From an uncultured delta proteobacterium (GTDB taxonomy: Bacteria; Myxococcota_A; Polyangia; Polyangiales; Polyangiaceae), in contig CAWKKR010000008.1 of the NCBI GenBank assembly GCA_963850305.1, forward strand, positions 480,001 through 544,000: a DNA stretch of 64,000 bases, given 5' to 3'. Below, piece after piece: positions 44,915 through 64,000 of this stretch. Both the position numbers and the translations under genes were made by a program. Numbering within the stretch: the first letter of the stretch is position 1; each line of letters opens with the position of its first letter. The notes under the pieces were generated by a model. The model worked only from the letters and a program-made list of their open reading frames with translations. It was not told where the DNA came from and ran no database searches.

Positions 44915-46330
44915 ATGCCTGAAACGCCCGATCGGGGGCTTCTACGGACCTACGAGTCGGTAGTCGCGCTGATCCAGCGACTCGCCGATGCCGGCTGGAT
45001 CGTGTTGGCGCAGTACGTCGCGTGCTGGCTCTATCCGGAGGAGTGGAAGCAATCGAACACGGTCGCCGCGCTCGTCGCGATGATCGCGTTCCATCTCGTC
45101 GCCGAGGTCAACGGCCTCTACCGTTCCTGGCGCGGCGCGCCGCTCAAGCACGAGGCGTTTCAAGCCCTGGCGACCTGGACGATCGCCGCGCCCGTCATCC
45201 TCTTCGTCGCGTTCATCACCAAGACCACGACTCAGTACTCGCGTTTCATCACGACCGTCTGGTTCGTCCTCGTCCCGGTCTTCGTGGTCTCGTGGCGGCT
45301 CGCCTTGCGGTTCGCGCTGATGGAGCTCCGTCGTCACGGCCGGAACTCCCGTACGGTCGCCATCGCCGGCCTCACGCCCATGGCTCAGCGCATCGCGCAG
45401 CGGATCGCGGCGGATCCGTACTCGGGGATGAAGATCCTCGGCTTCTACGACGATCGCAAGCCGGGGCGCCGCCACATCTTGCCGGACCTGTACGGCCCGC
45501 TCGTCGGCGATCTCGACCAGCTCGTCATCGACGCGCGGGACAGCAAGATCGATCGCATCTACATCACGTTGCCGCTCAAGGCCGAACCACGCATCAACTC
45601 GATCGTCCGAAAGCTGGCCGACACGACCGCGACCGTCTTCGTCGTGGCCGACTTCCTGGTGTTCGATCTGCTCCACGCCCAGTGGAGCCAGGTGGGTGAC
45701 ATCCCGGTCGTCAGCATCTTCGACACGCCGTTCCACGGCCTCGGCGGCTGGCTCAAGCGGCTCGAGGACATCGCGTTGAGCCTGCTGATTCTGACGATCA
45801 TCGCGATACCGCTCGCGCTCATCTCGATCGGCGTGAAGCTATCTTCCAGGGGCCCGGTGTTCTTCAAGCAGCGCCGCTACGGGCTGAACGGCAAGGAAAT
45901 CCGCGTCCTCAAGTTCCGGAGCATGACCGTCTGCGAAGACGGGCCCGTCGTCACGCAGGCGACCAAGCATGACGAGCGCGTGACGCGATTCGGCGCGTTC
46001 CTCAGACAGACGTCGCTCGACGAGCTCCCGCAGTTTCTCCAGGTGCTCACCGGGGAAATGAGCATCGTCGGCCCGCGTCCGCACGCCGTCGCCCACAACG
46101 AGCTGTATCGCGGCAAGATCCACGGTTACATGCTGCGCCACAAGGTGAAGCCGGGCATCACCGGCTGGGCGCAGGTGAACGGTTGGCGCGGCGAAACCGA
46201 CACCGTCGACAAGATGGAGAAGCGCGTCGAACACGATCTCGAATACATCCGGAATTGGGGACTGATCTGGGATCTGAAGATCATCATGCTGACCGTCTTC
46301 GGCGCAAAAAAGAGCGAGAACGCGTATTAG
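44915..46330 (+). CDS. wcaJ: Undecaprenyl-phosphate glucose phosphotransferase (WcaJ/EpsZ-type priming transferase)
   Basis: N-terminal TMs, KFRSM, SLDELPQ, MSIVGPRPH, KPGITGWAQVNG, DLEYI. Confidence 0.92.
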   Translation: MPETPDRGLLRTYESVVALIQRLADAGWIVLAQYVACWLYPEEWKQSNTVAALVAMIAFHLVAEVNGLYRSWRGAPLKHEAFQALATWTIAAPVILFVAFITKTTTQYSRFITTVWFVLVPVFVVSWRLALRFALMELRRHGRNSRTVAIAGLTPMAQRIAQRIAADPYSGMKILGFYDDRKPGRRHILPDLYGPLVGDLDQLVIDARDSKIDRIYITLPLKAEPRINSIVRKLADTTATVFVVADFLVFDLLHAQWSQVGDIPVVSIFDTPFHGLGGWLKRLEDIALSLLILTIIAIPLALISIGVKLSSRGPVFFKQRRYGLNGKEIRVLKFRSMTVCEDGPVVTQATKHDERVTRFGAFLRQTSLDELPQFLQVLTGEMSIVGPRPHAVAHNELYRGKIHGYMLRHKVKPGITGWAQVNGWRGETDTVDKMEKRVEHDLEYIRNWGLIWDLKIIMLTVFGAKKSENAY

Positions 46331-46366: not shown

Positions 46367-47065
46367 GTGACTGCCCGGCTGCTCGAAGGTCTCCTCGACC
46401 CGTGCGTGGAAACGGAAGAAGTCGATCCGTTCCGGGATCCGATCGACGAGCTCTTGCCGGAGGAGGCGCATACGATCGCGAATGGTCGCGACGCGCGACT
46501 CCTGGAGTTCCGCGCCGGTCGTCACTGTGCGCGGACGGCGCTTGGGCGGCTCGGGGCACCGGCGGGTCCGCTCCTCAGATCGGAGGATAGATCGCCGATC
46601 TGGCCGGCGGGATTCGTCGGCTCGATCACCCACACGCGCGGCGGCGCTCGCGCCTTCTGCGGCGCGGCCGTCGCGCGTTCGAGCGAGGTGCACGCGCTCG
46701 GAATCGATGCAGAATTCGACACGCCGCTCGAGCGCGCGCTCTTTCGCCGGATCTTGACGGAGGTCGAGCGCGCGTGGATCTCGGACGCAGCGGAGAGCGA
46801 CCAGCCGGTGCTCGCGAAGCGCGTCTTCAGCGCGAAGGAAGCCGTGTACAAGTGTCAGTACCCGCTTTCGCGCACGTTCCTGGAATTCGCCGACGTCGAG
46901 CTCGCGCCGTTCACCGGGACGACCTTCACGGCGATGCTTCGAAAGCGCGCGCCGCCGTTCGGAGAGGGGCACACGTTCACGGGTCGGCAAGCTTTGCGCA
47001 GCGGCCTCGTCGTCAGCGCCGTCGCGATCGCAGCTCGAACGAGCGTCACGTCCGCGGGGCGCTGA
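46367..47065 (+). CDS. 4'-phosphopantetheinyl transferase (EntD/Sfp-type)
   Basis: EFRAGR, PIWPAGFVGSITH, LGIDAE, FSAKEAVYK. Confidence 0.92.
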   Translation: MTARLLEGLLDPCVETEEVDPFRDPIDELLPEEAHTIANGRDARLLEFRAGRHCARTALGRLGAPAGPLLRSEDRSPIWPAGFVGSITHTRGGARAFCGAAVARSSEVHALGIDAEFDTPLERALFRRILTEVERAWISDAAESDQPVLAKRVFSAKEAVYKCQYPLSRTFLEFADVELAPFTGTTFTAMLRKRAPPFGEGHTFTGRQALRSGLVVSAVAIAARTSVTSAGR

Positions 47066-47143: not shown

Positions 47144-48524
47144 TTGGAGAGCGCCAATCTCGTCGCCTACGTTGCTTTGATCGTGTTCGCGCCGGTCGCC
47201 GTCGCGATCTACGGCGTGGTGCGCCCGACGCTCGCGACGGCCGCCGTACTCCTGGGCGCCGTGATGTATCTGCCCGAGCGAGTGAACTTCGATCCGCCCG
47301 GCCTTCCCCCGTTCGACAAGGCAACGATCGGCGGGCTCGCCGCTCTGGTCGGCAGCGCACTGGTCGCTCGACGAACGCTCACGAGCGCGCGGCCGGGCCG
47401 CGGATTCGATCTGTTCGCCCTGTTGCTCATCGCGGGCACGCTCGGCACCGCGCTCACGAACCCGGACGCATTGACTTATGGGTCGTCGTCGCATCCAGGC
47501 ACTGACTCCCTATGACGCCGTGTCGGACACCATCCGGGACTTGCTTTATCTGGTGTTCCCCTTCTTCCTCGGTCGCGCGCTCTACCGCAGCGCACGGGAT
47601 CTGAGAGATCTCATGGGCGTCGTGGTCATGGGCGCGCTCCTGTATTCGCCCCTGGTGCTCATCGAGCTCTGGCTGAGTCCGCAGCTTCACCGCTGGATCT
47701 ACGGCTTCCATCAGCACGACTTCTCGCAGGTGCTCCGGGACGGCGGATACCGGCCGATGGTCTTCATGGAAAACGGTCTCGCACTGGCACGGCTTCTGCT
47801 GACCGCGGCGCTCTTCGCCGCAACGCTCGCGCGGGCGCGCGAGAAGCTTCCCTTCTCGATCCCTCCGGCGCCGGTCGCCGCCTTTCTGACCGTGCTGTTG
47901 CTCGCGTGTCACAGCATGGGCGCCGCCGTGTACCTCCTCGTCTGTCTGCCCCTCCTGATCCTCGCTCGCCCGCGAGTCCACGTGCGCGTGGGAGCAATGC
48001 TCGCGACCGTCGTGCTCGCTTATCCCGTTCTCCGCGCCGCGGATCTGTTCCCCGTGAAACCCCTGCTCGATGTCTTCGCGAGGTTCAGCCAAGACCGGGC
48101 GGATTCGCTCGCCTTCCGCTTCGACAACGAGGCACAGCTCGTCCAGAAAGCGCTCGAGCGAGTCGTGTTCGGTTGGGGTGGGTTCGCGCGGGCCCACATT
48201 TTCGGGGAGTGGGGGAAGGACATCTCCGTCACGGACGGTCAGTGGATCATCGCCTTCGGAGATACGGGCGCGGTGGGCTTCCTGGGTTTGTTCGGGATGC
48301 TCGTGGGGCCCGTCGTGCTCGCCTGGCGGCGCATCACCGCCATCCCACGCGGGCCGACGCGCGTCCTGGTCGCGGGCATGGCGCTCACGACGGCGCTGAA
48401 CGTCGTGGACCTGTTGCCGAACGGGCTCTACTCGGCCCTGCCGCTCTTTTACGCAGGCGCTCTCGCAGGCGTCACGTGCGCACTTTCGAACGATTACGCG
48501 CTCGAAGGAGGAGTCGCCGAATGA
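47144..48524 (+). pseudogene. Wzy polymerase / O-antigen ligase-family membrane protein, frameshifted at about 47480
   Basis: Two overlapping hydrophobic ORFs (47144-47515, 47478-48524) join if one G of GGG at 47480-47482 is removed. Motifs SPQLH, RPMVF, SLAFRF, FGWG. May be a sequencing error. Confidence 0.78.
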
Positions 48525-49517
48525 GCCGAGTGGGCTGCGTCGTCATCGGTCGAAACGAAGCGTCGCGCCTCGGCCGGTGCCTCGCATCGGTGAAGCCTGA
48601 GTGCGATCGCATCGTCTACGTCGACTCCGCATCCGAGGACGCAAGCGTCGGTGTCGCGGAGCGGATGGGCGTGGAGGCGATCACACTCGACTCGAGCAGT
48701 CGTCTTTCCGCGGCCCGCGGCAGAAACGAAGGGTTTCTACACCTGACACGAACGGCGCCGGAGCTCGAGTTCGTGCAGTTCATCGACGGGGACTCGGAGC
48801 TCTCGCACAGCGTGGATCTCGCACGGGGTGGCGGAACTCGACCGCGACGGGGACGTCGCAGCGGCGTGTGGTCGGATCCGAGAACGGCATCCGCGGGCGT
48901 CCATTTACAACGCCATCAACGACATGGAGTGGGTCCACGGCACCGGAGACGTGGAGTGGTGCGCGGGCACGGCATTGTTCCGCGTCGCGCCGTTCCGGGA
49001 TGCCGAGGGATTCGATCCGACGCTCATCGCCGGTGAAGAGCCGGACCTGTGTGTGCGCCTGCGCGCGCGCGGATTTCGCTTTCGCGCGCTCGATCGGGAG
49101 ATGGCGGTCCACGACGCCGACATGACGCGCTTCTCGGAGTGGTGGACTCGCAACGTCCGTACCGGCCATGCCTACGCGGAAGCCGTCGCCAGGAGACCGG
49201 ACGACCCGGCGATGCACGCCGCCAGTGCCGTCCGGAGTATCGCGATCTGGGGACTCGCGCTGCCGGGGTTCTCCGTCGCGTTGATGCCGCCGACCCTCGG
49301 CGCGAGTCTCCTCGCGCCGTTCACCGCCTACCCGGCGTTGTTCGCCCGCGTGTACCGGACCATGCGCGCGCGCGGCTTTTCCCGCGACGACGCGCTGCTC
49401 TACGCCACGTTCTGCGTCCTGGGAAAGTTCCCGCAAGCGTTCGGACTGCTTCGCTTTCAATGGCTCAAGCGAAAAGGTCAGTCGAGCGATCTCATCGAAT
49501 ACAAGAGGCCCGCATGA
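48521..49517 (+). pseudogene. Glycosyltransferase family 2, frameshifted at about 48805
   Basis: MSRVGCVVIGRNE...YVDSAS...AARGRN...QFIDGD in one frame; WISHG...IAGEEPDLC...HDA continues in another. Confidence 0.82.
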
Positions 49518-50491
49518 AAGTTTTGGCGATCGTCGTGAACTATCGAACGGCGGAGCGCACGGTCGAAGCGGTCGCGTCGCTCCTCGACGCCCTCACGCAC
49601 CTGGACGGACGCGTGGCCGTCGTCGACAACGACTCGCAGGACGGCTCGCGTGAGCTCCTCGCTCGAACCATCGCGGAACGCGGCTGGAGCTCGCGCGTCG
49701 AACTCCTTTGCTCGCCGGTCAACGGTGGCTTCGGTTATGGCAACAACCTGGCGATCCGCCGGACCTACGACGCGGAGGATGCTCCCGAGTTTTTCTTCAT
49801 GCTGAACCCCGACGCCGTCGCGGAGCCGGACACGATCGCCGCGCTGCTCGAATTCATGGGGGAGACTCCCGACTGCGGCATCGCTGGGAGCCGCATCTTC
49901 GGCTTCGACGGCGAGCGACACGTCTCCGCGTTCCGCTTCCCGAGCCCGCTCGGCGAGCTCGAGGCTGGTCTGAAGCTCGGGCTCGCGACGCGCGTTCTGC
50001 GGCCCTGGGTCGTCGCGCCGCGTCCGCGCCACGCCACGGGAGAGGTCGACTGGGTGGCGGGCGCGAGCTTCATGGTGCGGCGCACGGTGTTCGATCGTGT
50101 CGGCCTCTTCGACGAGAAGTTCTTTCTCTACTTCGAGGAGGTCGATCTCTCTTTGCGGGCGAAGGCGCAAGGCCTCAAGACCTTCTACGTCCACGAAAGT
50201 CGCGTCAGCCACGAAGGGGCCGTGGCGACCGGCTTGAATGACACGAACCAGCCAGTTCCACCGTACTGGTTCGACTCGCGGAAACGGTTTTTCGCGAAGC
50301 ATCACGGCACGACGACCCTTTTGGCGGCAAACGTCTGCTTCACCGTCGGATTTCTTCTCTTTCGAGTACGGCGAAGGATCCAGCAGAAACCCGATCGCGA
50401 CCCGCCCAATCTTCTCTTCGACTTCATCCGGCACAACCTCCCCACACTCCCGGCCGCTCCGCAGGCCGGAGCTGCGGCGCTCGTTCAATGA
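49514..50491 (+). CDS. Glycosyltransferase family 2
   Basis: IVVNYRT, VVDNDS, GFGYGNN, LNPD, FDEKFFLYFEEVD. ATGA overlap with the previous gene. Confidence 0.92.
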   Translation: MKVLAIVVNYRTAERTVEAVASLLDALTHLDGRVAVVDNDSQDGSRELLARTIAERGWSSRVELLCSPVNGGFGYGNNLAIRRTYDAEDAPEFFFMLNPDAVAEPDTIAALLEFMGETPDCGIAGSRIFGFDGERHVSAFRFPSPLGELEAGLKLGLATRVLRPWVVAPRPRHATGEVDWVAGASFMVRRTVFDRVGLFDEKFFLYFEEVDLSLRAKAQGLKTFYVHESRVSHEGAVATGLNDTNQPVPPYWFDSRKRFFAKHHGTTTLLAANVCFTVGFLLFRVRRRIQQKPDRDPPNLLFDFIRHNLPTLPAAPQAGAAALVQ

Positions 50492-51077: not shown

Positions 51078-52382
51078 ATGCACTTGGCTCTCGGCGCGCT
51101 CGCTTTCACGCGATTGCTCGGCGCGCTGACCGCGGACGCCGTCGCAGGCGGCCGAACCGAAGTCATGGCCGGCATCGCTCCCGTGCTCCCCGGCGAGTCG
51201 TCCGAGGGCTCCGTCGGCGCGGCGCTCACGCCGTTCGGTGCGCTGCAACTCTCCGAAGAGACGTGGCACCTCGGGCTCAAGTACGCGCCGCGTCTTCTCT
51301 GGCGCGCACCCAACGCCGTCAACGACGGCCGTCCACTGCTGCTGCAGAGCGGCGCGCTCGAACACGAGGCCCTGCTCGGACGTTCGCTCACGCTGACGAC
51401 CGAGGTTCAGGGTAGCGCCGGACGCGTCGACTACAGCATGTACGCCCTTCAGGCGACACCGGGCGGCTCGGTGTCGCCCGCGGGAACCGGCGCTCAACCC
51501 GGGCAGCCTCAGACGACGACACCGGGAACCGCTGCGCCCTCCGCGACGACTGGACAGGCGGGAGTAGCGCCGTCCCAGCTCTCCCTGACGGTCATCGATC
51601 TCTACGACGTGTCGGCGGACACGAAGCTCCAGGCCCACACGGACGCGCGCACGACGCTGACGCTCGGCGCGTCAGGCGGCGACAACGGCCCAATAGGCGC
51701 CGCGAGCGAGAGCTACCCGCGACACACCCGCGCCGCGCTCGAGCCGTCGCTTCGATACCAGCTCTCACCCACCGACAACCTCCGCATGCCGCTCTCGAGC
51801 GAGTACCATCGGGTCAACGGTGTCACCCTCGTGGACGACAGCGCCGAGCTCGAATGGGAGCATCGCTTCCTGCCGCAGACGACACTGCTCCTCGCCGCGG
51901 GCGGCTTGTACGCGAAGCCCCTCGACCCCGCCGGCAACGGCACCTTCTTTCCCTCGGCCGACGCGAGCCTCTCGCACGCCCTCGTGTACGAGCGCGGCTT
52001 GCGGATCCAGGGGACGCTCGATGTCGCTCTTCAGCCGCTCCTGTTCGTGCTCGATGCAGACTTTCGTCCCATCGCGAGCGTGCAAGCGGCGTTCGACATG
52101 ATCGTGCCGCCGCGCCTCCGAGCCGGCCTCCGCGCCTCCTTCTCCACGACGGCCACGGCCAGGCCGTACACACCGGGCGAAGTCGAAACTTACTTCGTCG
52201 CGGAGGCGCCCATCGTCTACGACGTGAGCCCCAACGTCTCGTTCGAGTGCGGCGCGCGGAGCATCTGGAGCGCGCCTCATCTCTCCGAGAGCTTCCAGCT
52301 CGAGAACGCGCAGCTCTGGGGCTACCTCGCGATCACCGCCGTGCTCGGCACGAACGACGATCCGATCGAGATGACGCGGTAA
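51078..52382 (+). CDS. Putative outer-membrane beta-barrel partner of the OPX protein
   Basis: Signal peptide, alternating amphipathic beta-strand pattern, position 5 nt after the short OPX. Confidence 0.65.
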   Translation: MHLALGALAFTRLLGALTADAVAGGRTEVMAGIAPVLPGESSEGSVGAALTPFGALQLSEETWHLGLKYAPRLLWRAPNAVNDGRPLLLQSGALEHEALLGRSLTLTTEVQGSAGRVDYSMYALQATPGGSVSPAGTGAQPGQPQTTTPGTAAPSATTGQAGVAPSQLSLTVIDLYDVSADTKLQAHTDARTTLTLGASGGDNGPIGAASESYPRHTRAALEPSLRYQLSPTDNLRMPLSSEYHRVNGVTLVDDSAELEWEHRFLPQTTLLLAAGGLYAKPLDPAGNGTFFPSADASLSHALVYERGLRIQGTLDVALQPLLFVLDADFRPIASVQAAFDMIVPPRLRAGLRASFSTTATARPYTPGEVETYFVAEAPIVYDVSPNVSFECGARSIWSAPHLSESFQLENAQLWGYLAITAVLGTNDDPIEMTR

Positions 52383-52780: not shown

Positions 52781-53211
52781 ACGCTCGAGACGTGCCTCTC
52801 GACGCTCGAGACGTGCCTCTCGACGCTCGAGACGTGCCTCTCGACGCTCGAGACGTGCCTCTCGACGCTCGAGACGTGCCTCTCGACGCTCGAGACGTGC
52901 CTCTCGACGCTCGAGACGTGCCTCTCGACGCTCGAGACGTGCCTCTCGACGCTCGAGACGTGCCTCTCGACGCTCGAGACGTGCCTCTCGACGCTCGAGA
53001 CGTGCCTCTCGACGCTCGAGACGTGCCTCTCGACGCTCGAGACGTGCCTCTCGACGCTCGAGACGTGCCTCTCGACGCCGACGGACGCATCCTCGCGCCG
53101 CGTGATGCGCCTCTCGACGCTCGAGACGTGCCTCTCGACGCTCGAGACGTGCCTCTCGACGCCGACGGACGCGCCCTCGCGCCGCGTGAGCTGGCTCTCG
53201 ACGCCGACGGA
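52781..53211. repeat. Tandem array (VNTR): 21-bp unit ACGCTCGAGACGTGCCTCTCG x14, 42-bp unit, 21-bp x2, 42-bp variant, partial unit
   Basis: Counted directly from the sequence; 21-bp units are identical and there are no spacers. Confidence 0.95.
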
Positions 53212-53284: not shown

Positions 53285-53698
53285 CTAGGGCACTTGGAAG
53301 TCTTGGCGGACCGTGAGACCGCAGGAGACGTACTCCGCCTCGAGAGGGGGATGCTTGCTCGCTAGATCGCCATCTAGGTCGCAGAAGATGAGCTCCCGCT
53401 CTCCCGCTGAGTAGAGGTCGGTCGCTTTCGAGAGAACCGCTCCCAGGACCATCTCGTCGAACGGCTTGAGGGACTTCACGGTGAAGACTTTCAGCGTCCG
53501 AGCGACTACGGCGGGTGACGGATTTATCCGCTCCATCGCACCTACGGCGGTCTGGACCTGCTGTTCGAGTGTCGAAAGCGCTGTCTTTCGATCGGCGTCG
53601 GCGAGGTCGCTCAGCTCATCGCGGGTTCGCCGCGAACGGGTCCGGGCATTCGACGACCCTGCCGACGTCTGCGAGCAAGGGCGCGCCTCAGAATTCAT
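53285..53698 (-). pseudogene. Probable 5'-truncated PIN-like protein remnant
   Basis: The C-terminal ~110 aa (LKPFDEMVLGAVL...LIFCDLDGDL) resemble the second half of a PIN-like fold. No convincing N-terminus before the copolymerase stop. Confidence 0.4.
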
Positions 53699-55466
53699 TT
53701 TCGCGGACGTATCTTCGGAGCTCGACGAACGCGATGAGCAAGGTCGCCAGGAGCAAACCAAGCACCGAGCCAATGCCGGACCGCAAGAAGACGGTCCGGC
53801 GAAGCGGCGGGGTCGTGGGTTCCGTCGGGGACGTGATCTGGTAGCGCGCGGCGGCCAGGGCTTTCTCGAGATCGAGGTCGAGCTCGCTCGCCTTGTAGCG
53901 GGCGAAGAGCTTGGCATGAAGCTCTTTGGTGCCGGCATACGTGCGCGTGAGCTCGGCGTATTGCGCTTCGACGTCCGGGAGTTCGCGAGCGGCTCGGTCG
54001 AGCTCCGCGAGGTCTCCACTCACGCGTGCCAGCTCTCTCGATGCGGCATTCTTCGATACCCGAAGGTCCGCGATGCGATCGTTCAAGGCGCGGAGCGCGG
54101 GATCGGCGCGGCGCTCGGTGTCCGTGATGGCGCCCTGAACGGTTTGCCTGGAGAGCCGTTCGAGTTCCTGCTCTTGCCGTTCGAGATGCTGGACCTCGGG
54201 ATGCTCGTCACCCAGCCCGGAAGCGCGTGCTTGACCGAGCTTCTGCTTCACGTCGACGAGAGCCGTCTCGTAAGGCGCCGCGGCCTCCACCTTGTGCGAG
54301 AAGAGCGGATCGTCGGCCGTGATCTTGTTTCGCTCGGCGGCGAGCGCGAGGGTCGAGCGCTCCACCTCCGCAGCCAGATCCGTCTGACGCGCCTTGAGCG
54401 ACAGGCGCGCCGTGAACTCCTCTTTTGCCTGGTCGGGGAGACCATCGGGGTGTCGCTCCTTGAAGTCCCGGAGCGACGATTCCATCTTCGTGAGCTCGGC
54501 GTCGTTCGTGTCGAGCTGGCCTCTCAGGAACGTCACCTCCGCACTCATCACGTGCAGCGTCTTCTCGACCTCGAACGCGACGAACTCCTTCGACTGCTGC
54601 TCGAGAAAGCGCGTCGCGTCGCGCGTGCTGCGGTCCGTGAACGTCGCGCGGTAGGTCCCGAGTGCGATCCCGTCGAATTGGAGGCGGTTCCGCGCGGAGA
54701 CGACCTCTTCCCGCGTCGGAGGACGCGGCGAGAGAGCGGTCAGCGTGCGACCGATGAGTTCCGGACTCCTGAAATCCATCTCCGCGGCGGAGAAGAACCT
54801 GTCGTCGGACTGTGTCCCGGGGTTGTCGGAGGGTTTCGGAGTGAGCCGGATCTCGAATGCGGCGCGACCTTGCGGCGGTTTCACCCGCACGCTCGCGGCG
54901 CCGGCGAAGCTTGCCGCGAACACACATCCGGCAATCAATGGGTGATACGGGCGAAGGAAACGTCCGCCGCGAATGATGCCGCCCACGACGTCGTGGAGCG
55001 TGAGTCCCTCGTCACCCGCACGAAACTGCAGGTCGCGATTCTGACCCGGGAACTTCGCGAGGGACCGCACGCCCTGGTGCGTGATCGCGTCGATCGGGAC
55101 GTGGGAGATGGCGATCGTCGACGGGCGGCCCGGATCCTCGGGCTGCGAGAGAAAGCTCATCACGGTCTCGCCGACGCGGAGCACGTCACCGGCGCGCAGC
55201 AACCCGTCGGCGGTGACCCGTTCACCGTTCACGAAGGTGCCGTTGGTGGACTTGAGATCGACGACGCGATGCTCCCCGTTCACGAGAATGAGCCTCGCGT
55301 GGCGTTGCGACACCGACGCTTGGTCTAGCCGGATGTCTGCATCTCTCGCACGCCCGATGACATACTCGCCGGGCCTCAGCGGAAATATGGACCCGGGGCG
55401 CGCGCCCGCTAGCACGAGCAGGAACCCGCCGTCGCCGAAGTCCGCACGGTCCGAAAGCGGCCCCAT
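53688..55466 (-). CDS. FHA domain fused to a polysaccharide copolymerase (Wzz/Wzc periplasmic part), without a tyrosine-kinase domain
   Basis: FHA motifs IGR, SQRH, STNG; then TM1, a long periplasmic coiled coil (DEHPEV), Pro-rich plus Gly-rich TM2 (GIGSVLGLLL) and a ~10-aa tail. Confidence 0.85.
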   Translation of the reverse strand: MGPLSDRADFGDGGFLLVLAGARPGSIFPLRPGEYVIGRARDADIRLDQASVSQRHARLILVNGEHRVVDLKSTNGTFVNGERVTADGLLRAGDVLRVGETVMSFLSQPEDPGRPSTIAISHVPIDAITHQGVRSLAKFPGQNRDLQFRAGDEGLTLHDVVGGIIRGGRFLRPYHPLIAGCVFAASFAGAASVRVKPPQGRAAFEIRLTPKPSDNPGTQSDDRFFSAAEMDFRSPELIGRTLTALSPRPPTREEVVSARNRLQFDGIALGTYRATFTDRSTRDATRFLEQQSKEFVAFEVEKTLHVMSAEVTFLRGQLDTNDAELTKMESSLRDFKERHPDGLPDQAKEEFTARLSLKARQTDLAAEVERSTLALAAERNKITADDPLFSHKVEAAAPYETALVDVKQKLGQARASGLGDEHPEVQHLERQEQELERLSRQTVQGAITDTERRADPALRALNDRIADLRVSKNAASRELARVSGDLAELDRAARELPDVEAQYAELTRTYAGTKELHAKLFARYKASELDLDLEKALAAARYQITSPTEPTTPPLRRTVFLRSGIGSVLGLLLATLLIAFVELRRYVRENEF

Positions 55467-55501: not shown

Positions 55502-56566
55502 CTAGGCCGTCGCCTGCACCGCGGACGTCACGAGGTCGACCGGCTCCGGCGTCGCGGCGCAGCTGTCGGCGCGAGACGCGAGCGCGCTGCCATCGGCCGT
55601 GCCGCACTGCCCCGCGCTTCCCGTCGCGAGGCGCCGGGCCTCGAGCTCCGGACCGAAGGTCTCCCGCACCCACCGTCCGACGTCGCTCGGAGGCGCCAGG
55701 AGTTCGGCAGACATCGCGACCGCGTGCAAGTCTCGGATCATGTCTTCGGCGGACCGGTACCGAGCCCGGACGTCGTGCTCCAGAGCTCGGAGGCACACCC
55801 CATCCAGACAGCGGGGCGGCGCGAGACCCAAGCTGCTCGGCGCCGGAGCCGGAGTGGTCTGCAGGCGCGCGAGCATGTCTTCGTAGGTCGATGCGTCGAC
55901 GAGTTCCTGACCGGTGAGTGCGTTCCACAGAATGACCCCAGCCCAGAAAACGTCGGACACCAGACCGCCACCGGCGAGCCCGATACGGGACATTCGGCAC
56001 GTGCCGTCGAGTCCAACGAGCAGGTTGCGCGGAGACAGGTCGCGAGAAGGCAGGTCGATGACCCTGGGGGCGTCCCGTACGAGGTGATGGGCCGCGCGGA
56101 GACCGCCGAGCGCGTCGAGGACGATGGGAACGATGAGCCGCGGCGGGCGGTACGTCGGGTGCCGCGACAGGAGGTCGTGGAAGCTGCCCCCGTGGACGTA
56201 GTCCATGACGACGTAAGGCTGCTCCCGGTAAAAGCCGGTATCGACGACGCCGAGGACGCGCGGGTCCGAGATGGTGCCGGCGATTCGCGCTTCTTCGAGG
56301 AGCGCGCGCGCCATCGCGCGGTCGCTCGCGAGGCTCTTTCTGAGCATCTTCAAGGCGAACAGGCGCTCGAATCCACCCTCTCCCCTCGCTCGAACGAGAT
56401 AGACGATGGTGACCGGGCCCCGCGCGATGCGGCCTAGAACCTCGTATCTGCCGAGCGTCTGCACTCCGGCGGCCCCGAGCGAACGTAATGTTGGCTGGTT
56501 GCCGAGAACGGCCCGGTCGTCGGCGTGACCGGTCGGCCCTGCGTCTTCAGTGATGGAGGTGGACAT
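55502..56566 (-). CDS. Degenerate Hanks-type Ser/Thr kinase (pseudokinase)
   Basis: LGRYEV, FALK, EARI, VVMDY, RDLSPRN and SDVFWAG present. Gly-loop degraded, DFG replaced by RIG, activation segment/APE absent. Confidence 0.8.
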   Translation of the reverse strand: MSTSITEDAGPTGHADDRAVLGNQPTLRSLGAAGVQTLGRYEVLGRIARGPVTIVYLVRARGEGGFERLFALKMLRKSLASDRAMARALLEEARIAGTISDPRVLGVVDTGFYREQPYVVMDYVHGGSFHDLLSRHPTYRPPRLIVPIVLDALGGLRAAHHLVRDAPRVIDLPSRDLSPRNLLVGLDGTCRMSRIGLAGGGLVSDVFWAGVILWNALTGQELVDASTYEDMLARLQTTPAPAPSSLGLAPPRCLDGVCLRALEHDVRARYRSAEDMIRDLHAVAMSAELLAPPSDVGRWVRETFGPELEARRLATGSAGQCGTADGSALASRADSCAATPEPVDLVTSAVQATA

Positions 56567-57950
56567 TCGGCAAGTACCGATCGAGCCCGATCTTGAGGAC
56601 CAGACCGAGCGCCGCTCCGACGCCGGCCGCGACCGGGGCGATCAATTCGCGCGAGATACGGAGCAGCCCGAAGCGACGGAATGCGAACCAGAACACGACG
56701 AGCATCGGCAGCTCGCTCACGGTCGTTCCCCACAGCACGCCTTTGAGGTGGCCCAGGTACCAACCGAGCGGGATGCCGATCCAGACGGCGATGAACCGTC
56801 CTGCGTTGGCGATCAGGTGAAAGCGCGGATGCCCGAGGGCGATGATGCACACGCCGCACGGATACAAGATGCACTGAAGCCCCACCCGCACGCACAGAAA
56901 CTGGAGCATGTACCCCGCGGCGCGATATCGCGGGTCATACAGGAGGCGAACGACGTTCGGGCCGAGCACGACGAGGGCGCCAAGCGCCGGCATCGCCAGC
57001 AAGTCGAGCTTGAGGCGTGCAGCGTAATAGTGACGCCCGACCTCGGCGGGCCGCTCCCGGACGACTTGACTGAACAGCCCGAAGAAGACGGCGTACGTGA
57101 GCCTGTTCACGACCTGTCCCACCGCCGAGCCGAGCATGCCGGCGACGCTGTAGACACCGAGCGTCGCCATCGTGAGGAAGCGCCCGAGCAGGATCCGGTC
57201 GCCCTCGCCAGCGAGAAAGGTGAAGAGACTCGAGCCGAAGATCCATTTTCCGAAATTGGTGATCGTCCGCGCCGCAGTCTTGTCCCACCGGAATCGATTC
57301 ACGTAGCCAGTGGGCAACAGGTGACTCCCGACGACCTCGAGGACCGATTGCGTCATGCCGCCGGCGATGAGCGCCCACACGGTCGGGGACAGCTTCGCCC
57401 AGACGAACATGACGATCATGGCCGCCACCTTCGACGTGACCTCGACGACGAGAAGCGGACCGCGGCGCACGTGGCGGGCGAGCGTATCGAGCTTCGTCGA
57501 GCCGAACCCGTGGATCACGAGCGCGAACGACGCGACGGTGATCATCGCGAAGAGCCGTGGCTCGTGATAGAGCAACGACACCGGGTACGCGAGCGCGATC
57601 GCCGCGCCCCACAGCATGAATCCACGAATCACCTGGATGGTCCATGCTGTGTTCAGGAAGTCGAGGTCGTCCCCATGCTCGCTGGAGATGATGCTGTCCT
57701 TGAGCCCGACGTCCGTCAGCATGCCCAGCGCGACCATGAACACCGTGACGATCGCCGTCAGCCCGTACGCCGCGGGGAAGAGCAGACGCGACAGGATCAA
57801 GTTCGTCGCCAGACGGAGCCCCTGACTCAGCAGATACCCGATGATCTCGATGACGGAGCCGCGAACGACGAGGCGCCGCAGCCGATTCGAATGCTCCGCG
57901 GTGTCTGCGGCGGCTGCGCGAATCGGGTGAACGACGCCGGTGTCGGTCAT
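56547..57950 (-). CDS. wzx: Wzx oligosaccharide flippase
   Basis: About 12 TM segments, ILSRLL.P..YGL, TDVGL, TAWT, DRILLGRFL, LGVYSVA, LYDPRY. Confidence 0.9.
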   Translation of the reverse strand: MTDTGVVHPIRAAAADTAEHSNRLRRLVVRGSVIEIIGYLLSQGLRLATNLILSRLLFPAAYGLTAIVTVFMVALGMLTDVGLKDSIISSEHGDDLDFLNTAWTIQVIRGFMLWGAAIALAYPVSLLYHEPRLFAMITVASFALVIHGFGSTKLDTLARHVRRGPLLVVEVTSKVAAMIVMFVWAKLSPTVWALIAGGMTQSVLEVVGSHLLPTGYVNRFRWDKTAARTITNFGKWIFGSSLFTFLAGEGDRILLGRFLTMATLGVYSVAGMLGSAVGQVVNRLTYAVFFGLFSQVVRERPAEVGRHYYAARLKLDLLAMPALGALVVLGPNVVRLLYDPRYRAAGYMLQFLCVRVGLQCILYPCGVCIIALGHPRFHLIANAGRFIAVWIGIPLGWYLGHLKGVLWGTTVSELPMLVVFWFAFRRFGLLRISRELIAPVAAGVGAALGLVLKIGLDRYLPNVHLHH

Positions 57951-57953: not shown

Positions 57954-60900
57954 TCACGTCGCGAAGTTCGAAGTACTCGAGCGCTCGACCGTGGGGACAT
58001 CGCCCGGCGGGGCGGCCGCGAACTCGGCGGGCGGAGCGTCGTCGAGATCGGCCCTGGGCGCAAACAGCTTCCGCACGCCGGACCGCGGCACCCGGGCCGT
58101 TGCGAGCACGTTCGAGAGACACGTGGACGTCAGTTCCGCATGTTCTTCGCTCACGAAGCTCGTGTGACCACCGCTCACCTCTACGACGAAGAGTTCGCCC
58201 AGCACCACCGGGCCCCAGCCGTTGCGAGGGTCGAAAATCTTCGTGTCGCGTTCGCGAGACCGAAGCAAGAAGACCGTGCCGGGGTACGGCTGCGGCTCGT
58301 AGCGGCTCTGCATGTCGGTCCACGCTGCCGCCACGGCCTCGTTCCGGAACTCGTACGGAAACCACCGAGACAAGCGCGAAAGCACGGACACTCGCAAATC
58401 CTGCCCGCGACGCAGGAGTCCCTCACCGAACGCCGTCAGCGCGTAGGAGACGCCATCGGACCGAACGCGAGTCGAATGGTATGCGACCCTTTCCGCGAGC
58501 GACCACATGGGGATCTGCGGATTCACGGCATCCAGCAGGACGAGCGCGCCAATCTGCTCGCCGCTCGCTCGAAGCTGCATCGCCATCTCGAGCGCCGCGG
58601 TCCCTCCCCCGGAGAAGCCCCCCAGGAAATAGGGGCCGTGCGGTTGCACCTCGCGCATGTCCTCGATGAACTCGCGAGCCATCTCCTCGACGGAGGTATG
58701 AGGAGCCCGTAGTCCGTCGACGCCGCGATGCTGAAGCCCGTAGAAGGGTTGATCGTCCCCGAGCTTCGCCGCCACCGGGCGGAGATTCATCGGATTGCCG
58801 CCTCGGCCCGCGACGCAGAAGAACGGGGGCAGCGACCCTTCGGGCTTCATCGGCACGACGGTCGACCAGGAACGCGACGCCCGTCCCTCGGCCCGCGTCG
58901 CGACGGTCATCTCCTGTCGAACGCGGACCGCCATCCTTTCGACTGTCGGAGCTTCGAACAGCGCGGACAGCGACAGGCGCACGCCGAACTCCTGGCGAAC
59001 CCGCGAAAGCAACCGGACCCCGAGCAGGGAGTGCCCGCCAAGCGCGAAGAAGTCGTCGGAAAGGCCCACATCGGGAATCTCGAGACTCGTCTGCCAGACA
59101 GCGACGAGTCGCCGTTCGACCTCATCGCGGGGCTCGTGGCGCGGTTCGGCGGACCCGAGGCTCCGGACCGGCGCCGGCAGGGCGTTCCGATCGATCTTGC
59201 CGCTCGGCGTGAGCGGCAGTGCGTCCATTCGCACGAACGCAGCCGGAACCATGTGGATCGGCAAGTACCGCCTCGCGTGTTCGCGGAGCGCGGAGGTATC
59301 GAGCGAGATCCCGGCGCGAGGCACGAGGTAGGCGACAAGTTCGAAGGAGCTGTCAGGCCGCGCGACGACCACGGCCTCCTTCACCGTCCGGTGCCCGGCG
59401 AGCACGGCCTCGATCTCACCGAGCTCGACGCGGTGCCCGCGCACTTTCACCTGATGGTCGTTTCGCCCCAGGTACTCGAACACACCGCCGGCAGCGATCC
59501 GGACGAGGTCGCCGGTTCGATACATCCTTGCGCCGGACACGAATGGGTCATCGAGAAATCGCTCCCGGGTGAGCTCCGGACGCGCGTGGTACCCGCGCGC
59601 CACCGACGGCCCGGCGATGTGGAGCTCACCCGCGGCGCCGATGGGTCTCTGACGGAGCTCCGGATCGAGCACGTAAAATCGCGTGTTCGCGATCGGACGC
59701 CCGATCGGCACGGGCCCCGGCTGGGCCTGGACAGCATGTGCGCTCGACCAGACGGTAGTCTCCGTGGGGCCGTACGCGTTCACGATCTGTCCTCGAATGA
59801 CCTTCGAGAGCTCCAGAACGAGCGTCTCGGAGAGCGCCTCGCCGGCGAGAATCAGCTGCCGGAGTCGACCGAGCGCGCTGCGCGTTTCCGGATCCTCGAT
59901 GAGCGTCGCGATCTGCGAAGGCGTACACTGAAAATGGGTTATGCCGAAACGTTCGATGAGTCTCGCGATCCCGAAGTCGGACCGACGCGCGTCGCCGAGC
60001 AGCTGATCTCCGAGCAGGACCACCGTGAGCCCGTGGGTGAGCGAACCGAGGATCTCGAGCACGCTGATGTCGAACGACACGCTCGTGCCGGCAAGCCAGA
60101 CGCCGTGGTCACGGAGATCGACGATGTCCTCCATGCCCCGAAAGAACGCGATGACGTTCCGGTGCTCGACCAGCACTCCTTTGGGTTTGCCCGTGGAGCC
60201 CGAGGTGTAGATGGAATAAGCGAGCTGATCCGGCGCTCCCGGTACGTCGAGAGGCTCCGCACTCTCGCGCAAGATGCTCGCCCGTGTGTGGTCGTCGTCG
60301 AGCACGAGCCGCTCCACGGGAGACTCGACGAGATCCATCGTCGAGGTCTCCGCGACGAGAAAGCGCGCCCCCGAGTCGGCGAGCATGAAGGACAGTCGCT
60401 CGCGCGGGTACGATGGATCGAGCGGGAGGTATCCACCGCCGGCGGTATGGACGGCAAGGAGCGCAACGACGAGGTCGAGCGATCTGTGCAGACAGACGCC
60501 GACCGGCGCGTCTCGCTTCACCCCCAGGGACCGGAGCGCACGAGCCAGCCTGTTCACCCGCACCCGCAGCTCTCGGTAAGTGACGCTGTGGCCCTCGAAC
60601 CAGACCGCGATCTTCTCCGGCCTCCGATCGACCTGCTTCTCGAAGAAGTGATGCACCAGAGCGTCCCGGGCAAGCGGTGGCTGCGCCGCGTTCCACTCGA
60701 GAAGCTCGGCACGCTGCGCGTACAGACCGTCGAGATCCCCGATGCGCGTCTCCGGCGCGGTGGCGACCTCGGAAAGGAGCTCTTGAAAGCACGCGACGAA
60801 GCGCCGGGCCGTCGCTTCCTCGAACAGATCGAGCGCGTACTCGAGGGCCCCAGAAACGGTCGCACCGTCATCGCGAACGTAGAGCGCCAGATCGGTGAGC

Positions 60901-63900
60901 GAACTCCCCGCATGGACCTCGACTTCCCGAAGGTCGAGGCCGGAAGCGATCGGGGTCACCTGGCGAAACGCGAAGAAAACCTGAAAGAGCGGCGTCCGGC
61001 TGCGGTCGCGCACCGGTCGGAGCGCCTCCACTACTTGCTCGAAGGGGATTCTTCGATGCTCGTACGCGCCGATACACGTCTCGCGCACGGCGGCGAGGAG
61101 CACCGGAAACGGCGCCGTATCGTCCAGCTTCGTGCGGAGGACCAGGGTGTTCACGAAGAGGCCGATCGCGTCCTTCAACTCGGGTCGAACGCGCTCGTCG
61201 ATCGCCGTCCCCACGACGAGGTCCCGCTCGCCCGTGTACCGGTACAGAGCGACGTTCAGCACGGCGAGCAGAACCATCTGGAGGGTGGTGCCTTCCGTTT
61301 TACCGAGATCCCGCAGGCGGGAGAGAACGTCCGCGGGAACTGCGAACGGCACGACGCTGCCGCGATAGCTCATCTGCGCAGGTCGCCTTCCGTCGAGCGG
61401 CAGCTCCAGGTTCGCGGGGATGCCTTCGAGGTTCCGGATCCAGTAGTCGAGCTCTCGCCTTCGCGTTGCGTCGTCGCGCGACGAGAGCTCCCACTCGACG
61501 TAATCGGCGTAGCTGACCTGCACGGGCGGCAGCGGGGATTCGCCTCCCTTCGCAAAGGCGTCGTAAAGCACCCGAAACTCGCGCTCGAACAGCTCGAAGG
61601 AAACGCCGTCCCAGATCAGGTGGCTCGCGACGAACCAGAGCACCTTATCTCCCTCGGCTAGTGTCGCGATGCCGGCGCGCCACGCCGGACCGTGTTCGGG
61701 GTCGAGCGGGCGAGCCAACCACGGAAAGAGCCGCTCTTCGATCGGAGGCTCGCGACCGGGCCACGAAGAGAGATCGTCGAGCTCCAGGTTCACCTCGATC
61801 GAATCGTGAGCGAGCTGCTTCGGCCCGGTATCGTCTTGAACGATCGACGTCCGCAAGACATCGTGTCGCCGGACGATCTCGCCGAGCACGCGTCGCGCGA
61901 TCTCTACGTCGAATTCACCGCGGATCCTGAACGCGCAGGGGAGGTTCAAGAAAGACGTACCGGGAAGCAACGCGTCCATGAACCACAGGCGCTGCTGTGA
62001 GGGCGACAGCGCAGCGGGACCCGCGTGCGTCCTCGGAATGATGGGATTCTCGGCAGATGGCTGAACACTTCCCTGCTCGACGTATCTGGCAAGGGCCTCT
62101 ACGGTCGGTTTACGAAAGAACCGCGCGAGCCCGACGTCGACACCCGAGGACTCGCCGACTCGGGCGAGCATGCGCGCCGCAAGCATGGAGTGTCCCCCCA
62201 TGGCAAAGAAGTCCTCGTCCACCCCGACGCGCTCGACCCCGAACAGTGTGCTCCAGATTCCGGCGACGATTCGCTCCGATTCACTCCGCGGGAGCACACG
62301 CTCCCGCGCCGACTCACCGGATGCGTCCGGCAGTGGCAAGCCGTTCCGATCGATCTTCTGGTTTGGCGTGCGAGGAAGCTCGGAAAGCACGACGAAGTGC
62401 TGCGGGATCATGTAACCAGGCAGGCTTTGCTCGACTCGCGCCCGAAGCTCGGGTGGCTTGACGGGACCGGAACTCGCCACGTATGCGACGATCCTTCGAT
62501 CGCCTGGAACGTCCTCGCGCACCACGACCGTGCACTCGCGAACGCGAGGGTCTTCGGCGATCACGCTCTCGATCTCGCCGAGCTCGATCCGGTAGCCGCG
62601 CACTTTGACTTGATTGTCGGCGCGCCGCGAGAAGAGCAGCGTGCCGTCTCGACGCCAGTGAACCAGGTCACCGGTTCGATAAAACACGCCGCTACCGATA
62701 TCGGCCCTCGAGATCGTGATGAAACGTTCTCGGGTGAGCTCCGGACGACCTAGATAACCGCGCGCGACGCCTTCGCCACCGATGTAGAGCTCGCCGAGCA
62801 CCCCGACGGGAACCCTCTCGCGGCGCTCATCGAGAACCAGAAGACGAGTGCCGGCGATCGGTCGTCCGATCGGCACCGAGCCTGGGACGTTTTCGACGCG
62901 ATGGCACGTCGACCATACGGTGGCCTCGGTCGGCCCGTACATGTTCCAGACGCTCCCGCACCTCTCGACCATGGCGAGCGCGAGCTCTCGAGGGAGGGTC
63001 TCGCCCCCGATGAGTGCCTTGAAGCGCGCGCCGAAGGGGAAGCGGGCCTCGACGAGCAACCGGAAGGTCGACGGGGTGGCTTGCAGGAATGTCACGCCAA
63101 ACCGAACGAGCAGTTCCGCGAGCGCACGCCCGTCCATGCCGACCTCGCGCGGGATCACGACCACCTGGGCCCCGACGGTGAGGGGCAAGAACAGTTCGAG
63201 CACGGAAATGTCGAATGACAGCGTCGTCACGGCGCCGACGACGTCGTCCGGCGAAAGCCCGGGTTCGCGCGCCATCGCGGCGAGGAAATTCGCGATGGAG
63301 CCGTTCGCGACGAGTACACCCTTGGGTTTGCCCGTCGATCCGGACGTGTGGAGCACGTAGGCGATCTGCTCCGCGTCGTCTTCGCGGGGTGGCCGTTCGG
63401 ACGAGCATGCAGCGATCCGGTCGGCGTGCGCATCGAGAACGACGCGCGTCTCGACTTGCAGAGGCGTGTCGTCGAGCGACGCTTCGGTCACGAGCGCGCT
63501 AAGCCCCGCATCGTTCGCGATGAACGCGAGGCGCGACGCGGGAAACTCCGGATCGAGCGGCACGTAGGTTGCTCCGGCCTTCAGCACGCCGAGCAACGCC
63601 ACGAGGAGCTCCGTTCCGCGACCGAGCGAGATACCGACGCGGTCCGCCGGTTTCACGCCGAGGGCGACGAGATGCCGGGCGAGGCGATTTGCTCGCTCGT
63701 CGAGCTCGCGATACGTGACCGCGGCGGTGAGAGAACGCGCGGCAACGGCATCCGGCGTCCGGCTCGCCTGTGCCTCGAAGAGCCCGGCGATCGTCCTCAC
63801 GGGCGGAGATCCGGGCGCGGCAGTTTCCCACGATTCGAGGAGCGAACACTCGCGAGGGGGAATCAGGGGCAGCTCACCCAGACGTTGAGACGAGTCACGA

Positions 63901-64000
63901 GCCACACCGTCGAGGAGGACCGTGAACTCCTCGAGACGCAGTCGCACCGTTTCGCGGTCGAAGAGATTCGTATTGAAGCTCGCTTCCAGAACGACGTCTT
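57954..64000 (-). CDS. Non-ribosomal peptide synthetase, (C)-A-T-C-A-T-TE; 5' part outside window
   Basis: Frame stays open to the window edge (…FNTNLFDRETV, end of a C domain). A-domain motifs TSGSTGKPKG, FDIS, YGPTE and YRTGD occur twice; T domains GGHSML and GGHSLL; C motif SHLIWDG; TE GFSGG. Confidence 0.96.
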   Translation of the reverse strand, partial: DVVLEASFNTNLFDRETVRLRLEEFTVLLDGVARDSSQRLGELPLIPPRECSLLESWETAAPGSPPVRTIAGLFEAQASRTPDAVAARSLTAAVTYRELDERANRLARHLVALGVKPADRVGISLGRGTELLVALLGVLKAGATYVPLDPEFPASRLAFIANDAGLSALVTEASLDDTPLQVETRVVLDAHADRIAACSSERPPREDDAEQIAYVLHTSGSTGKPKGVLVANGSIANFLAAMAREPGLSPDDVVGAVTTLSFDISVLELFLPLTVGAQVVVIPREVGMDGRALAELLVRFGVTFLQATPSTFRLLVEARFPFGARFKALIGGETLPRELALAMVERCGSVWNMYGPTEATVWSTCHRVENVPGSVPIGRPIAGTRLLVLDERRERVPVGVLGELYIGGEGVARGYLGRPELTRERFITISRADIGSGVFYRTGDLVHWRRDGTLLFSRRADNQVKVRGYRIELGEIESVIAEDPRVRECTVVVREDVPGDRRIVAYVASSGPVKPPELRARVEQSLPGYMIPQHFVVLSELPRTPNQKIDRNGLPLPDASGESARERVLPRSESERIVAGIWSTLFGVERVGVDEDFFAMGGHSMLAARMLARVGESSGVDVGLARFFRKPTVEALARYVEQGSVQPSAENPIIPRTHAGPAALSPSQQRLWFMDALLPGTSFLNLPCAFRIRGEFDVEIARRVLGEIVRRHDVLRTSIVQDDTGPKQLAHDSIEVNLELDDLSSWPGREPPIEERLFPWLARPLDPEHGPAWRAGIATLAEGDKVLWFVASHLIWDGVSFELFEREFRVLYDAFAKGGESPLPPVQVSYADYVEWELSSRDDATRRRELDYWIRNLEGIPANLELPLDGRRPAQMSYRGSVVPFAVPADVLSRLRDLGKTEGTTLQMVLLAVLNVALYRYTGERDLVVGTAIDERVRPELKDAIGLFVNTLVLRTKLDDTAPFPVLLAAVRETCIGAYEHRRIPFEQVVEALRPVRDRSRTPLFQVFFAFRQVTPIASGLDLREVEVHAGSSLTDLALYVRDDGATVSGALEYALDLFEEATARRFVACFQELLSEVATAPETRIGDLDGLYAQRAELLEWNAAQPPLARDALVHHFFEKQVDRRPEKIAVWFEGHSVTYRELRVRVNRLARALRSLGVKRDAPVGVCLHRSLDLVVALLAVHTAGGGYLPLDPSYPRERLSFMLADSGARFLVAETSTMDLVESPVERLVLDDDHTRASILRESAEPLDVPGAPDQLAYSIYTSGSTGKPKGVLVEHRNVIAFFRGMEDIVDLRDHGVWLAGTSVSFDISVLEILGSLTHGLTVVLLGDQLLGDARRSDFGIARLIERFGITHFQCTPSQIATLIEDPETRSALGRLRQLILAGEALSETLVLELSKVIRGQIVNAYGPTETTVWSSAHAVQAQPGPVPIGRPIANTRFYVLDPELRQRPIGAAGELHIAGPSVARGYHARPELTRERFLDDPFVSGARMYRTGDLVRIAAGGVFEYLGRNDHQVKVRGHRVELGEIEAVLAGHRTVKEAVVVARPDSSFELVAYLVPRAGISLDTSALREHARRYLPIHMVPAAFVRMDALPLTPSGKIDRNALPAPVRSLGSAEPRHEPRDEVERRLVAVWQTSLEIPDVGLSDDFFALGGHSLLGVRLLSRVRQEFGVRLSLSALFEAPTVERMAVRVRQEMTVATRAEGRASRSWSTVVPMKPEGSLPPFFCVAGRGGNPMNLRPVAAKLGDDQPFYGLQHRGVDGLRAPHTSVEEMAREFIEDMREVQPHGPYFLGGFSGGGTAALEMAMQLRASGEQIGALVLLDAVNPQIPMWSLAERVAYHSTRVRSDGVSYALTAFGEGLLRRGQDLRVSVLSRLSRWFPYEFRNEAVAAAWTDMQSRYEPQPYPGTVFLLRSRERDTKIFDPRNGWGPVVLGELFVVEVSGGHTSFVSEEHAELTSTCLSNVLATARVPRSGVRKLFAPRADLDDAPPAEFAAAPPGDVPTVERSSTSNFAT

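Follow-up and report, generated by a model that had tools for sequence, protein, structure and literature searches.

Polysaccharide co-polymerases (PCPs) of the PCP-2 type have been described with two arrangements of an active bacterial tyrosine (BY) kinase: PCP-2a proteins such as Wzc carry a fused BY kinase with Walker A, A' and B motifs and a tyrosine cluster, and PCP-2b systems such as CapAB and CpsCD use a stand-alone active BY kinase, usually encoded by an adjacent gene. The tyrosine cycle of Wzc sets its oligomeric state, and the way in which PCP phosphorylation governs polymer length and export has yet to be settled (PMC12220298). In Myxococcus xanthus, the PCP EpsV has a 37-residue N-terminal extension, and a BY pseudokinase (EcpK) docks on its C-terminal tail independently of phosphorylation (PMC12004946); HfsA/HfsB is grouped with this type. 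Described PCP-2 systems rely on a BY-family protein, whether an active kinase or a pseudokinase. Here we analyze a PCP encoded in a 64,000-nucleotide stretch (hereafter, the window) of contig CAWKKR010000008.1, from the assembly GCA_963850305.1 of an uncultured delta proteobacterium placed in the Polyangiaceae. The cytoplasmic control module of this protein, which we call FHA-PCP, is an FHA domain and not a BY kinase, and the sequence evidence assembled below suggests that threonine phosphorylation and FHA docking probably replace the tyrosine cycle in the family to which it belongs.

An FHA domain in place of a BY kinase

A first-pass annotation, made from the letters of the window alone, had described an FHA domain with GR, SxxH and NG motifs, followed by a first transmembrane helix (TM1), a coiled coil, a second transmembrane helix (TM2) and a short tail; Pfam, hydropathy and AlphaFold2 agree with this layout, including its two hydrophobic helices (Table 1). 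The Pfam FHA match covers residues 35-99 (E 1.1e-18), and the motifs G38-R39, S53-x-x-H56 and T74-N75-G76 would form a pocket of the phosphothreonine (pThr)-binding type on the modeled FHA sandwich, whose closest structures by Foldseek are GarA, OdhI, FhaA and DgcB (about 1 Å root-mean-square deviation to GarA, OdhI and DgcB). The protein has no Pfam Wzz match. Its residues 271-589 match the TIGR03007 chain-length determinant (E 1.9e-23, below the family cut-off in NCBIfam), its PCP part matches Wzc (E 2e-12) and PslE (E 4.8e-12) in a profile search of PDB sequences, and Foldseek again returns Wzc (9r68, E 8.5e-9); the C-terminal region thus does resemble known PCPs, a point on which the first-pass reading had been made to depend. 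In the AlphaFold2 model (94 sequences, mean pLDDT 89.6, pTM 0.56) the FHA domain is followed by a disordered linker (residues 115-151), a helix running through TM1, the alpha/beta PCP motif, a long coiled coil, TM2 and the tail, so that two helices, the first of them moderately hydrophobic, flank a predicted periplasmic alpha/beta motif and coiled coil. By homology, the protein is likely to be the PCP in the inner membrane for a Wzx/Wzy pathway whose export route is a short OPX protein and a beta-barrel.

Neither described arrangement of an active BY kinase is present. A Walker A motif or tyrosine cluster occurs in 0 of 108 family members, TIGR01007 has no match inside the window, and no BY-like or EcpK-like open reading frame (ORF) was found in 76 loci of up to 20 kb each, drawn from 69 genomes. 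The earlier statements that the protein lacks both motifs and that the window lacks a stand-alone BY kinase are therefore borne out, and no cognate BY kinase came to light elsewhere in the cluster.

A recurrent family

A profile built from seven sequences recovered over a hundred clusters at 50% identity. Among 156 proteins examined, FHA was present in 112 of 131 full-length PCP matches, a proportion favored by the inclusion of the FHA domain in the query profile; of the 19 without it, many start within the linker and about five look truly FHA-less. A survey with only the PCP part gave strong matches in 32 out of 300 genomes from the family to which the window belongs and in 37/71, 31/71 and 2/2 genomes of three further families of the class, and none outside the class among 401 genomes sampled across the phylum. 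The 76 loci comprise 36 of the 37 strong places in the window's family and 40 of 81 further places, picked by score and contig extent. All but two encode the FHA domain (74/76; of the two exceptions, one runs into a contig end and the other is FHA-less), which rules out a gene-fusion artefact. Pocket residues are conserved across the 108 members (R in 102, S in 101, H in 108, N in 98); a natural variant has Glu in place of the pocket Asn. The family recurs beside polysaccharide-export genes: the 76 loci, many of them cut by contig ends, hold a phosphoglycosyl transferase in 51, OPX in 53, a barrel in 49, Wzy in 21 and Wzx in 8. No conserved phosphatase or unknown 200-aa gene stood out by eye among the 40 largest neighbor clusters.

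As for other resources, the nearest Atlas cluster is placed in Myxococcota, and six PCPs of one family code trace to 24 records, many of them Nannocystaceae or Nannocystales, including Paraliomyxa miuraensis SMH-27-4. The FHA-PCP of this strain keeps the pocket but has no linker motif (see below), and its clade kinase is encoded at a distance. A metagenome scan with the window's PCP part gave one short locus, and the cluster names retrieved for 10 relatives were uninformative. Literature searches outside subscription papers found no FHA-bearing PCP, in keeping with the earlier remark that the architecture is not one recognized from characterized systems; papers returned by the direct searches were unrelated, judged by title and opening of the abstract, or in one case had an FHA passage concerning VanZ. 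The main texts of PMC12004946, PMC12819527, PMC12220298 and the 2022 OPX preprint do not contain the term FHA, and the supplementary cluster surveys of PMC12004946 and the preprint could hold such proteins. We conclude that FHA-PCP is a genuine and conserved variation on PCP-2 that seems not to have been described before, and that it has a candidate kinase of its own.

A clade of non-RD kinases beside FHA-PCP genes

While right about the BY kinase, the first-pass account of the locus overlooked a Hanks-type kinase homologue encoded 35 bases upstream of the FHA-PCP gene. Across 71 loci (five with too little upstream DNA are left out, and an unrelated kinase in L041 is not counted), a kinase gene lies upstream within 900 bases in 30 and at 0.9-2.6 kb in 17, lies downstream in 3, and is lacking in 21. 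In this genome, by comparison, a kinase lies within 900 bases of 4.2% of random spots and within 2.6 kb of 6.6%; for its 28 other FHA genes the counts are 4/28 and 6/28. The neighbor kinases group together on a single branch, separate from the closest HRD kinases (support 0.92; SH-aLRT 97 in a second tree), and several loci without an adjacent kinase have a member of this clade elsewhere in the genome. All 48 complete kinase domains of the clade are non-RD, and in 37 aligned domains the K, E, D, N, DFG and PE positions are invariant, so that the relatives' kinases have the residues of an active Hanks-type kinase (Lys, alphaC Glu, HxD..N, DFG, PE) and are predicted to be catalytic. Most have a C-terminal transmembrane helix, and some an N-terminal DUF4388 domain. 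At L036:9423-14594, a single FHA-PCP gene is preceded upstream by two clade-kinase genes in tandem.

Paired threonine motifs

Just behind the FHA domain, 79 of 108 members have a T-x-x-[L/I/V/M] motif, which is the pattern of FHA ligands (T117 in the window protein), against 34.7 +/- 4.3 in 1000 shuffles (maximum 47). The motif was first spotted by eye and counted afterwards; a second locus set gave 26/39 against 13.6 +/- 2.6 shuffled. It lies at offsets 6-9 in 60 of the 79, its S-x-x version occurs in 41/108, and among this genome's other FHA domains it is found in 5/26. A matching motif stands in the kinases' juxtamembrane segment, just before the transmembrane helix (20/28 against 7.2, by window count), with the other transmembrane kinases of this genome at 20/54 against 18.1. 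In the second set it is present in 19/19, a count from which a score cut removed four lower-scoring kinases, two of them without a match there; an alignment that includes lower-scoring kinases has the threonine in 38/42, with L or I at +3 in 33 of the 38. A hydrophobic +3 residue is a key feature of FHA recognition (PMC6733907).

Apparent co-loss of the kinase and the pocket

The R/S/N pocket is intact at 60 of 61 loci whose genome contains a clade kinase and at 1 of 10 where none was found; for the linker motif the corresponding counts are 52/61 and 2/9. The pocket count covers 71 loci and omits L053, whose FHA domain is frameshifted, together with four genomes left unresolved or unsearched. 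Completeness of the eight genomes without the kinase is 86-97%; for G318 and G464 the scoring covered just 150 candidates out of 338 and out of 785, and the tree took in only the best hits. Six of the seven PCPs of the main clade without the kinase continue in frame through a lipobox-like segment into a short OPX protein (Poly_export and SLBB; Table 1), a type of fusion for which our literature search found no description.

A proposed switch and its alternatives

We favor, as probable rather than established, a switch in which threonine phosphorylation and FHA docking take the place of the tyrosine cycle; the linkage and the motifs are observed. The partner non-RD Hanks-type membrane kinase would phosphorylate a threonine in its own juxtamembrane segment, the resulting pThr would dock the FHA domain of the PCP, and the kinase would then phosphorylate the linker threonine behind that domain. 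In what is the weakest step of the scheme, the phosphorylated linker would be bound by an FHA domain, more likely that of a neighboring protomer because the threonine lies only about 10 residues behind the last FHA strand. Such FHA-linker contacts could switch the oligomer's cytoplasmic ring between open and closed and so gate polymerization or export, the job done in Wzc by the tyrosine-cluster cycle. The kinase clade, the paired T-x-x-hydrophobic motifs and the decay of the pocket without the kinase all lend weight to the threonine-phosphorylation input that the first-pass annotation had proposed, and they do not single out chain length, export or assembly as the step controlled. Complex prediction, pairing a relative's kinase and juxtamembrane segment with its FHA domain, scored 0.00 in two runs and is uninformative either way. 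More tentatively, and at somewhat less than even chances, FHA-PCP may constitute a fourth PCP-2 regulatory class in which a dedicated non-RD Hanks kinase and an inter-protomer FHA-pThr latch drive ring assembly, with kinase-less lineages letting the pocket decay and one clade having fused PCP to OPX as a kinase-free export scaffold.

Several observations weigh against the proposed switch. The FHA genes of this genome in general adjoin kinases more often than random spots do. The clade kinases have HxD[VIF]SPxN and G-K-P where textbook kinases have HRDxKPxN and G-T-P, and for this reason threonine specificity is suggested by the FHA partner and the conserved threonine, not by the kinase itself. 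Nine of the 61 kinase-positive loci have no linker motif, including a whole sub-lineage with an intact pocket and a distant kinase. On the PCP tree, three independent pairs show loss in the same direction, none in the opposite and one is a tie (p 0.25), so with about three independent lineages the co-loss is suggestive and not significant. Since some complete-looking members with short N-termini are FHA-less (P0139, P0149, P0156, P0157, P0158), the PCP may work without the domain. Finally, in the window itself the FHA pocket and T117 are intact although the adjacent kinase has lost its catalytic motifs, juxtamembrane threonine and transmembrane helix, which fits poorly with strict dependence on that kinase.

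The window's kinase copy nests within the clade, beside an intact 514-aa sister, and looks, from its sequence, like an inactive pseudokinase. Its Gly-loop consensus (GGMG to GPVT), catalytic-loop His (to S), DFG (to RIG), activation segment and APE (about 30 residues deleted), juxtamembrane threonine motif and transmembrane helix are gone, K73, E92, D176 and N181 remain, and the missing parts were not found in other reading frames; it thus falls short of an active Hanks-type kinase in its Gly loop, HxD, DFG, activation segment and PE. No second clade member was found among the kinase-like ORFs scanned in this genome. With a soluble pseudokinase as partner, either T117 would be phosphorylated here by another kinase or the switch would be in early decay. 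One of the roughly 105 kinase-like ORFs of this genome could stand in, by analogy with PknF, which other kinases can replace once pknF is deleted (PMC3138270).

The first alternative is that the FHA domain serves recruitment only, tethering the PCP to a pThr-bearing protein, be it the phosphorylated kinase or some other, and so placing or timing the export machine without switching the oligomer. This would suit the better conservation of the juxtamembrane threonine than of the linker motif, the sub-lineage with pocket and kinase and no linker motif, and the DUF4388 domains and long disordered N-termini that the kinases often have and that could localize them. Tethering alone, however, does not need a linker motif that is far above chance, fixed in position and shares the same +3 L/I/V preference, and we regard this reading as unlikely.

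We assign a similarly low probability to the possibility that the family works as proposed while the locus in this genome is decaying, with its kinase dead, Wzy and a glycosyltransferase broken and the pathway silent; such decay is compatible with either the switch or tethering. In its favor, the end branch of the window kinase is long (0.67 against 0.26 for its intact sister) and its identity to intact clade members is 44% against 50% among them, wzy and a glycosyltransferase gene have frame breaks, and six same-genus genomes have no strong FHA-PCP match. Against it, 6 of 22 conserved loci across this assembly are also frame-broken, so that the two breaks are probably sequencing indels, and we rejected them as proof of decay; findings of split genes in this genome need caution for the same reason. 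A search of sequencing runs listed one DNA run, with a share of 0.05, and no RNA run. The kinase ORF is moreover open over 354 codons with a third-position GC content (GC3) of 0.82, keeps 56 of 71 conserved columns (sister, 69) and is modeled with a PknB-like fold (pLDDT 82), and the PCP is intact.

Far less probable is a phospho-independent structural FHA domain, as in SctD-type proteins of type III secretion systems, with the kinase a mere neighbor: Pfam's Yop-YscD_cpl profile scores equal to FHA on the window domain and the window kinase is a pseudokinase, but pocket residues are kept in more than 90% of members and decay where no kinase was found, and the closest structures are pThr readers.

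We also considered BY proteins elsewhere in the genome, where a search of the kind that the first-pass annotation had suggested gave no stand-alone kinase above the cut-off; BY domains and an EcpK-like candidate lie in other clusters. A single TIGR01007 match exceeds the cut-off, and it falls on the C-terminal domain of a full-length Wzc encoded on a different contig (C5:265700-267890), with intact BY kinase and tyrosine cluster and split by a frame break. The other TIGR01007 hits read, by their motifs, as ParA-, Mrp- and MinD/FlhG-like proteins and not BY kinases. Across 45 other carrier genomes, each of the 47 BY matches above the cut-off falls in a reading frame of at least 473 aa (44 over 700 aa), and the three shortest of these have a hydrophobic helix before Walker A. 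The EcpK-like candidate (C8:1728899-1729423, E 8.3e-31 to the candidate profile) is about 1.19 Mb away; its family was first picked up beside an EpsD-like gene, and its identity with EcpK is suggested by position and a weak BY match. It belongs to a second exopolysaccharide cluster (C8:1703600-1732470) with an EpsV-like PCP and a polyketide synthase gene; a further PCP there has a fused BY domain after a long Pro-rich linker, without Walker A consensus or tyrosine tail. Action in trans by one of these proteins, with FHA as an accessory input, would draw on their presence and on EcpK not being adjacent to epsV in M. xanthus (PMC12004946), but it is very unlikely, given that the candidate adjoins its own EpsV-like PCP, that the L-P-V-L-G-type tail segment of EpsV-like and Wzc proteins (with a docking role in PMC12004946) is found in 0 of 105 FHA-PCP tails, that the candidate family, scored with a narrow profile and only tentatively equated with EcpK, was found in 2/46 carriers and 4/4 non-carriers, and that 6 of 45 carriers have no BY match at E 1e-22.

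Gene neighborhood

A plus-strand block, from the priming transferase to the barrel, faces the minus-strand genes for a nonribosomal peptide synthetase (NRPS), Wzx, the kinase and FHA-PCP (Table 1). The minus-strand spacing (3 bases, a 20-base overlap and 35 bases, in that order) indicates an operon-like arrangement, and the short OPX gene with its adjacent EpsX-like barrel gene gives the window a D1D2-OPX/beta-barrel export pair. A promoter and terminator scan gave signals at chance level. Among the polysaccharide genes lie others for an AMP-binding enzyme, a 4'-phosphopantetheinyl transferase (PPTase) and the large NRPS (window 42984-47065 and 57954-63998). Several related loci also have PPTase and NRPS-like genes, and the polysaccharide may be decorated with peptide or acyl groups. 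Window 32737-36426, 17 kb from FHA-PCP, encodes a Ser/Thr kinase of 1229 aa that has ATPase-like and TPR-like regions.

Table 1. Features of the FHA-PCP locus (window coordinates) and PCP-OPX fusions in related loci (locus coordinates).
Feature	Position	Strand	Size or basis
FHA-PCP: FHA fused to two-TM polysaccharide co-polymerase, without BY kinase	53688..55466	-	592 aa
FHA domain, residues 14-107; pocket R39, S53, H56, T74, N75	55146..55427	-	Pfam, alignment, Foldseek
T117-I-A-I120, conserved T-x-x-hydrophobic behind FHA; candidate phosphosite and putative FHA ligand	55107..55118	-	motif count
TM1, ~residues 175-195	54882..54944	-	hydropathy peak 1.73 (modest); helix in model
TM2, ~residues 560-583, then tail of ~9 residues	53718..53789	-	hydropathy peak 2.35; model
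Hanks-type pseudokinase, 354 aa, member of clade neighboring FHA-PCP genes	55502..56566	-	Pfam, alignment, tree, model
Wzx-type flippase, overlaps kinase start by 20 bases	56547..57950	-	Polysacc_synt_3 E 1.2e-46
NRPS (A, carrier (PCP), C, TE domains), runs off window	57954..63998	-	Pfam; ends 3 bases before wzx
EpsX-like outer-membrane beta-barrel	51078..52382	+	Atlas first match EpsX PF28089, score 0.98, recognition value just under tool's mark
Short D1D2-type OPX, EpsY-like, 194 aa	50488..51072	+	Poly_export and SLBB; NF041843 EpsY E 1.7e-46, below cut-off
GT2 glycosyltransferase	49499..50491	+	
GT2 glycosyltransferase, two frames, break near 48805	48530..49517	+	probably assembly indel
Wzy-type polymerase, two frames, break near 47500	47144..48524	+	Wzy_C E 7.3e-5; 40-48% to intact relatives across break
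4'-phosphopantetheinyl transferase	46367..47065	+	
WcaJ-type priming phosphoglycosyl transferase	44915..46330	+	TIGR03023 above cut-off
21-base tandem repeat between two converging gene blocks	52781..53162		18 copies, 93% matches
In-frame PCP-OPX fusions	L121:8812-11370, L130:8569-11310, L133:8748-11333		
In-frame PCP-OPX fusions, continued	L136:8740-11304, L137:8812-11688, L140:8793-11291		also in proteins P0143, P0186, P0194

Comparison with known systems

Among the closest described systems is EpsV/EcpK with EpsY/EpsX of M. xanthus (PMC12004946; bioRxiv 10.1101/2022.04.04.486985), in which a PCP-2 likewise lacks a fused BY kinase, has long helices in the periplasm and is partnered by a short D1D2 OPX protein and a barrel. 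FHA-PCP differs in having an FHA domain in place of the N-terminal extension and no tail segment, and it scores below 19 bits against the EpsV model NF041864, whose cut-off is 800. In PknF-Rv1747 of Mycobacterium tuberculosis (PMC3138270), a kinase gene shares an operon with a membrane transporter whose FHA domains bind pThr sites of its own linker; Rv1747, however, is an ABC transporter with two FHA domains and not a PCP. DgcB, GarA and OdhI (PMC6733907), the best structural matches to the window FHA domain, take their FHA ligand, with its hydrophobic +3 residue, from the same protein, but they are soluble with the threonine in an N-terminal tail, whereas in FHA-PCP, a membrane protein expected to oligomerize, it lies just C-terminal of the domain. 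PknB-MviN-FhaA (PMC12599244) offers a further likeness, in that a Hanks kinase, a pseudokinase and an FHA domain control a lipid-linked glycan pathway; there the FHA domain belongs to a protein of its own, and it is the peptidoglycan flippase that is targeted.

If the proposed switch holds, Hanks signaling would be linked directly to a polysaccharide export machine, with two threonines, three pocket residues and one lysine as single-residue test points and the natural kinase-less, FHA-less and PCP-OPX-fused variants as ready comparisons. With Wzc and CapAB/CpsCD, FHA-PCP shares the two transmembrane helices, the alpha/beta motif, the coiled coil and a cytoplasmic phospho-module placed to control assembly (PMC12220298), but in place of a P-loop BY kinase and tyrosine cluster it has an FHA reader and a separate Hanks-fold membrane kinase. 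The myxobacterial FHA-PCP with its usually adjacent membrane kinase points to a different on/off switch for surface sugars, and would imply that reversible contacts at the cytoplasmic face, and not the chemistry of the BY kinase, are what matters in PCP control.

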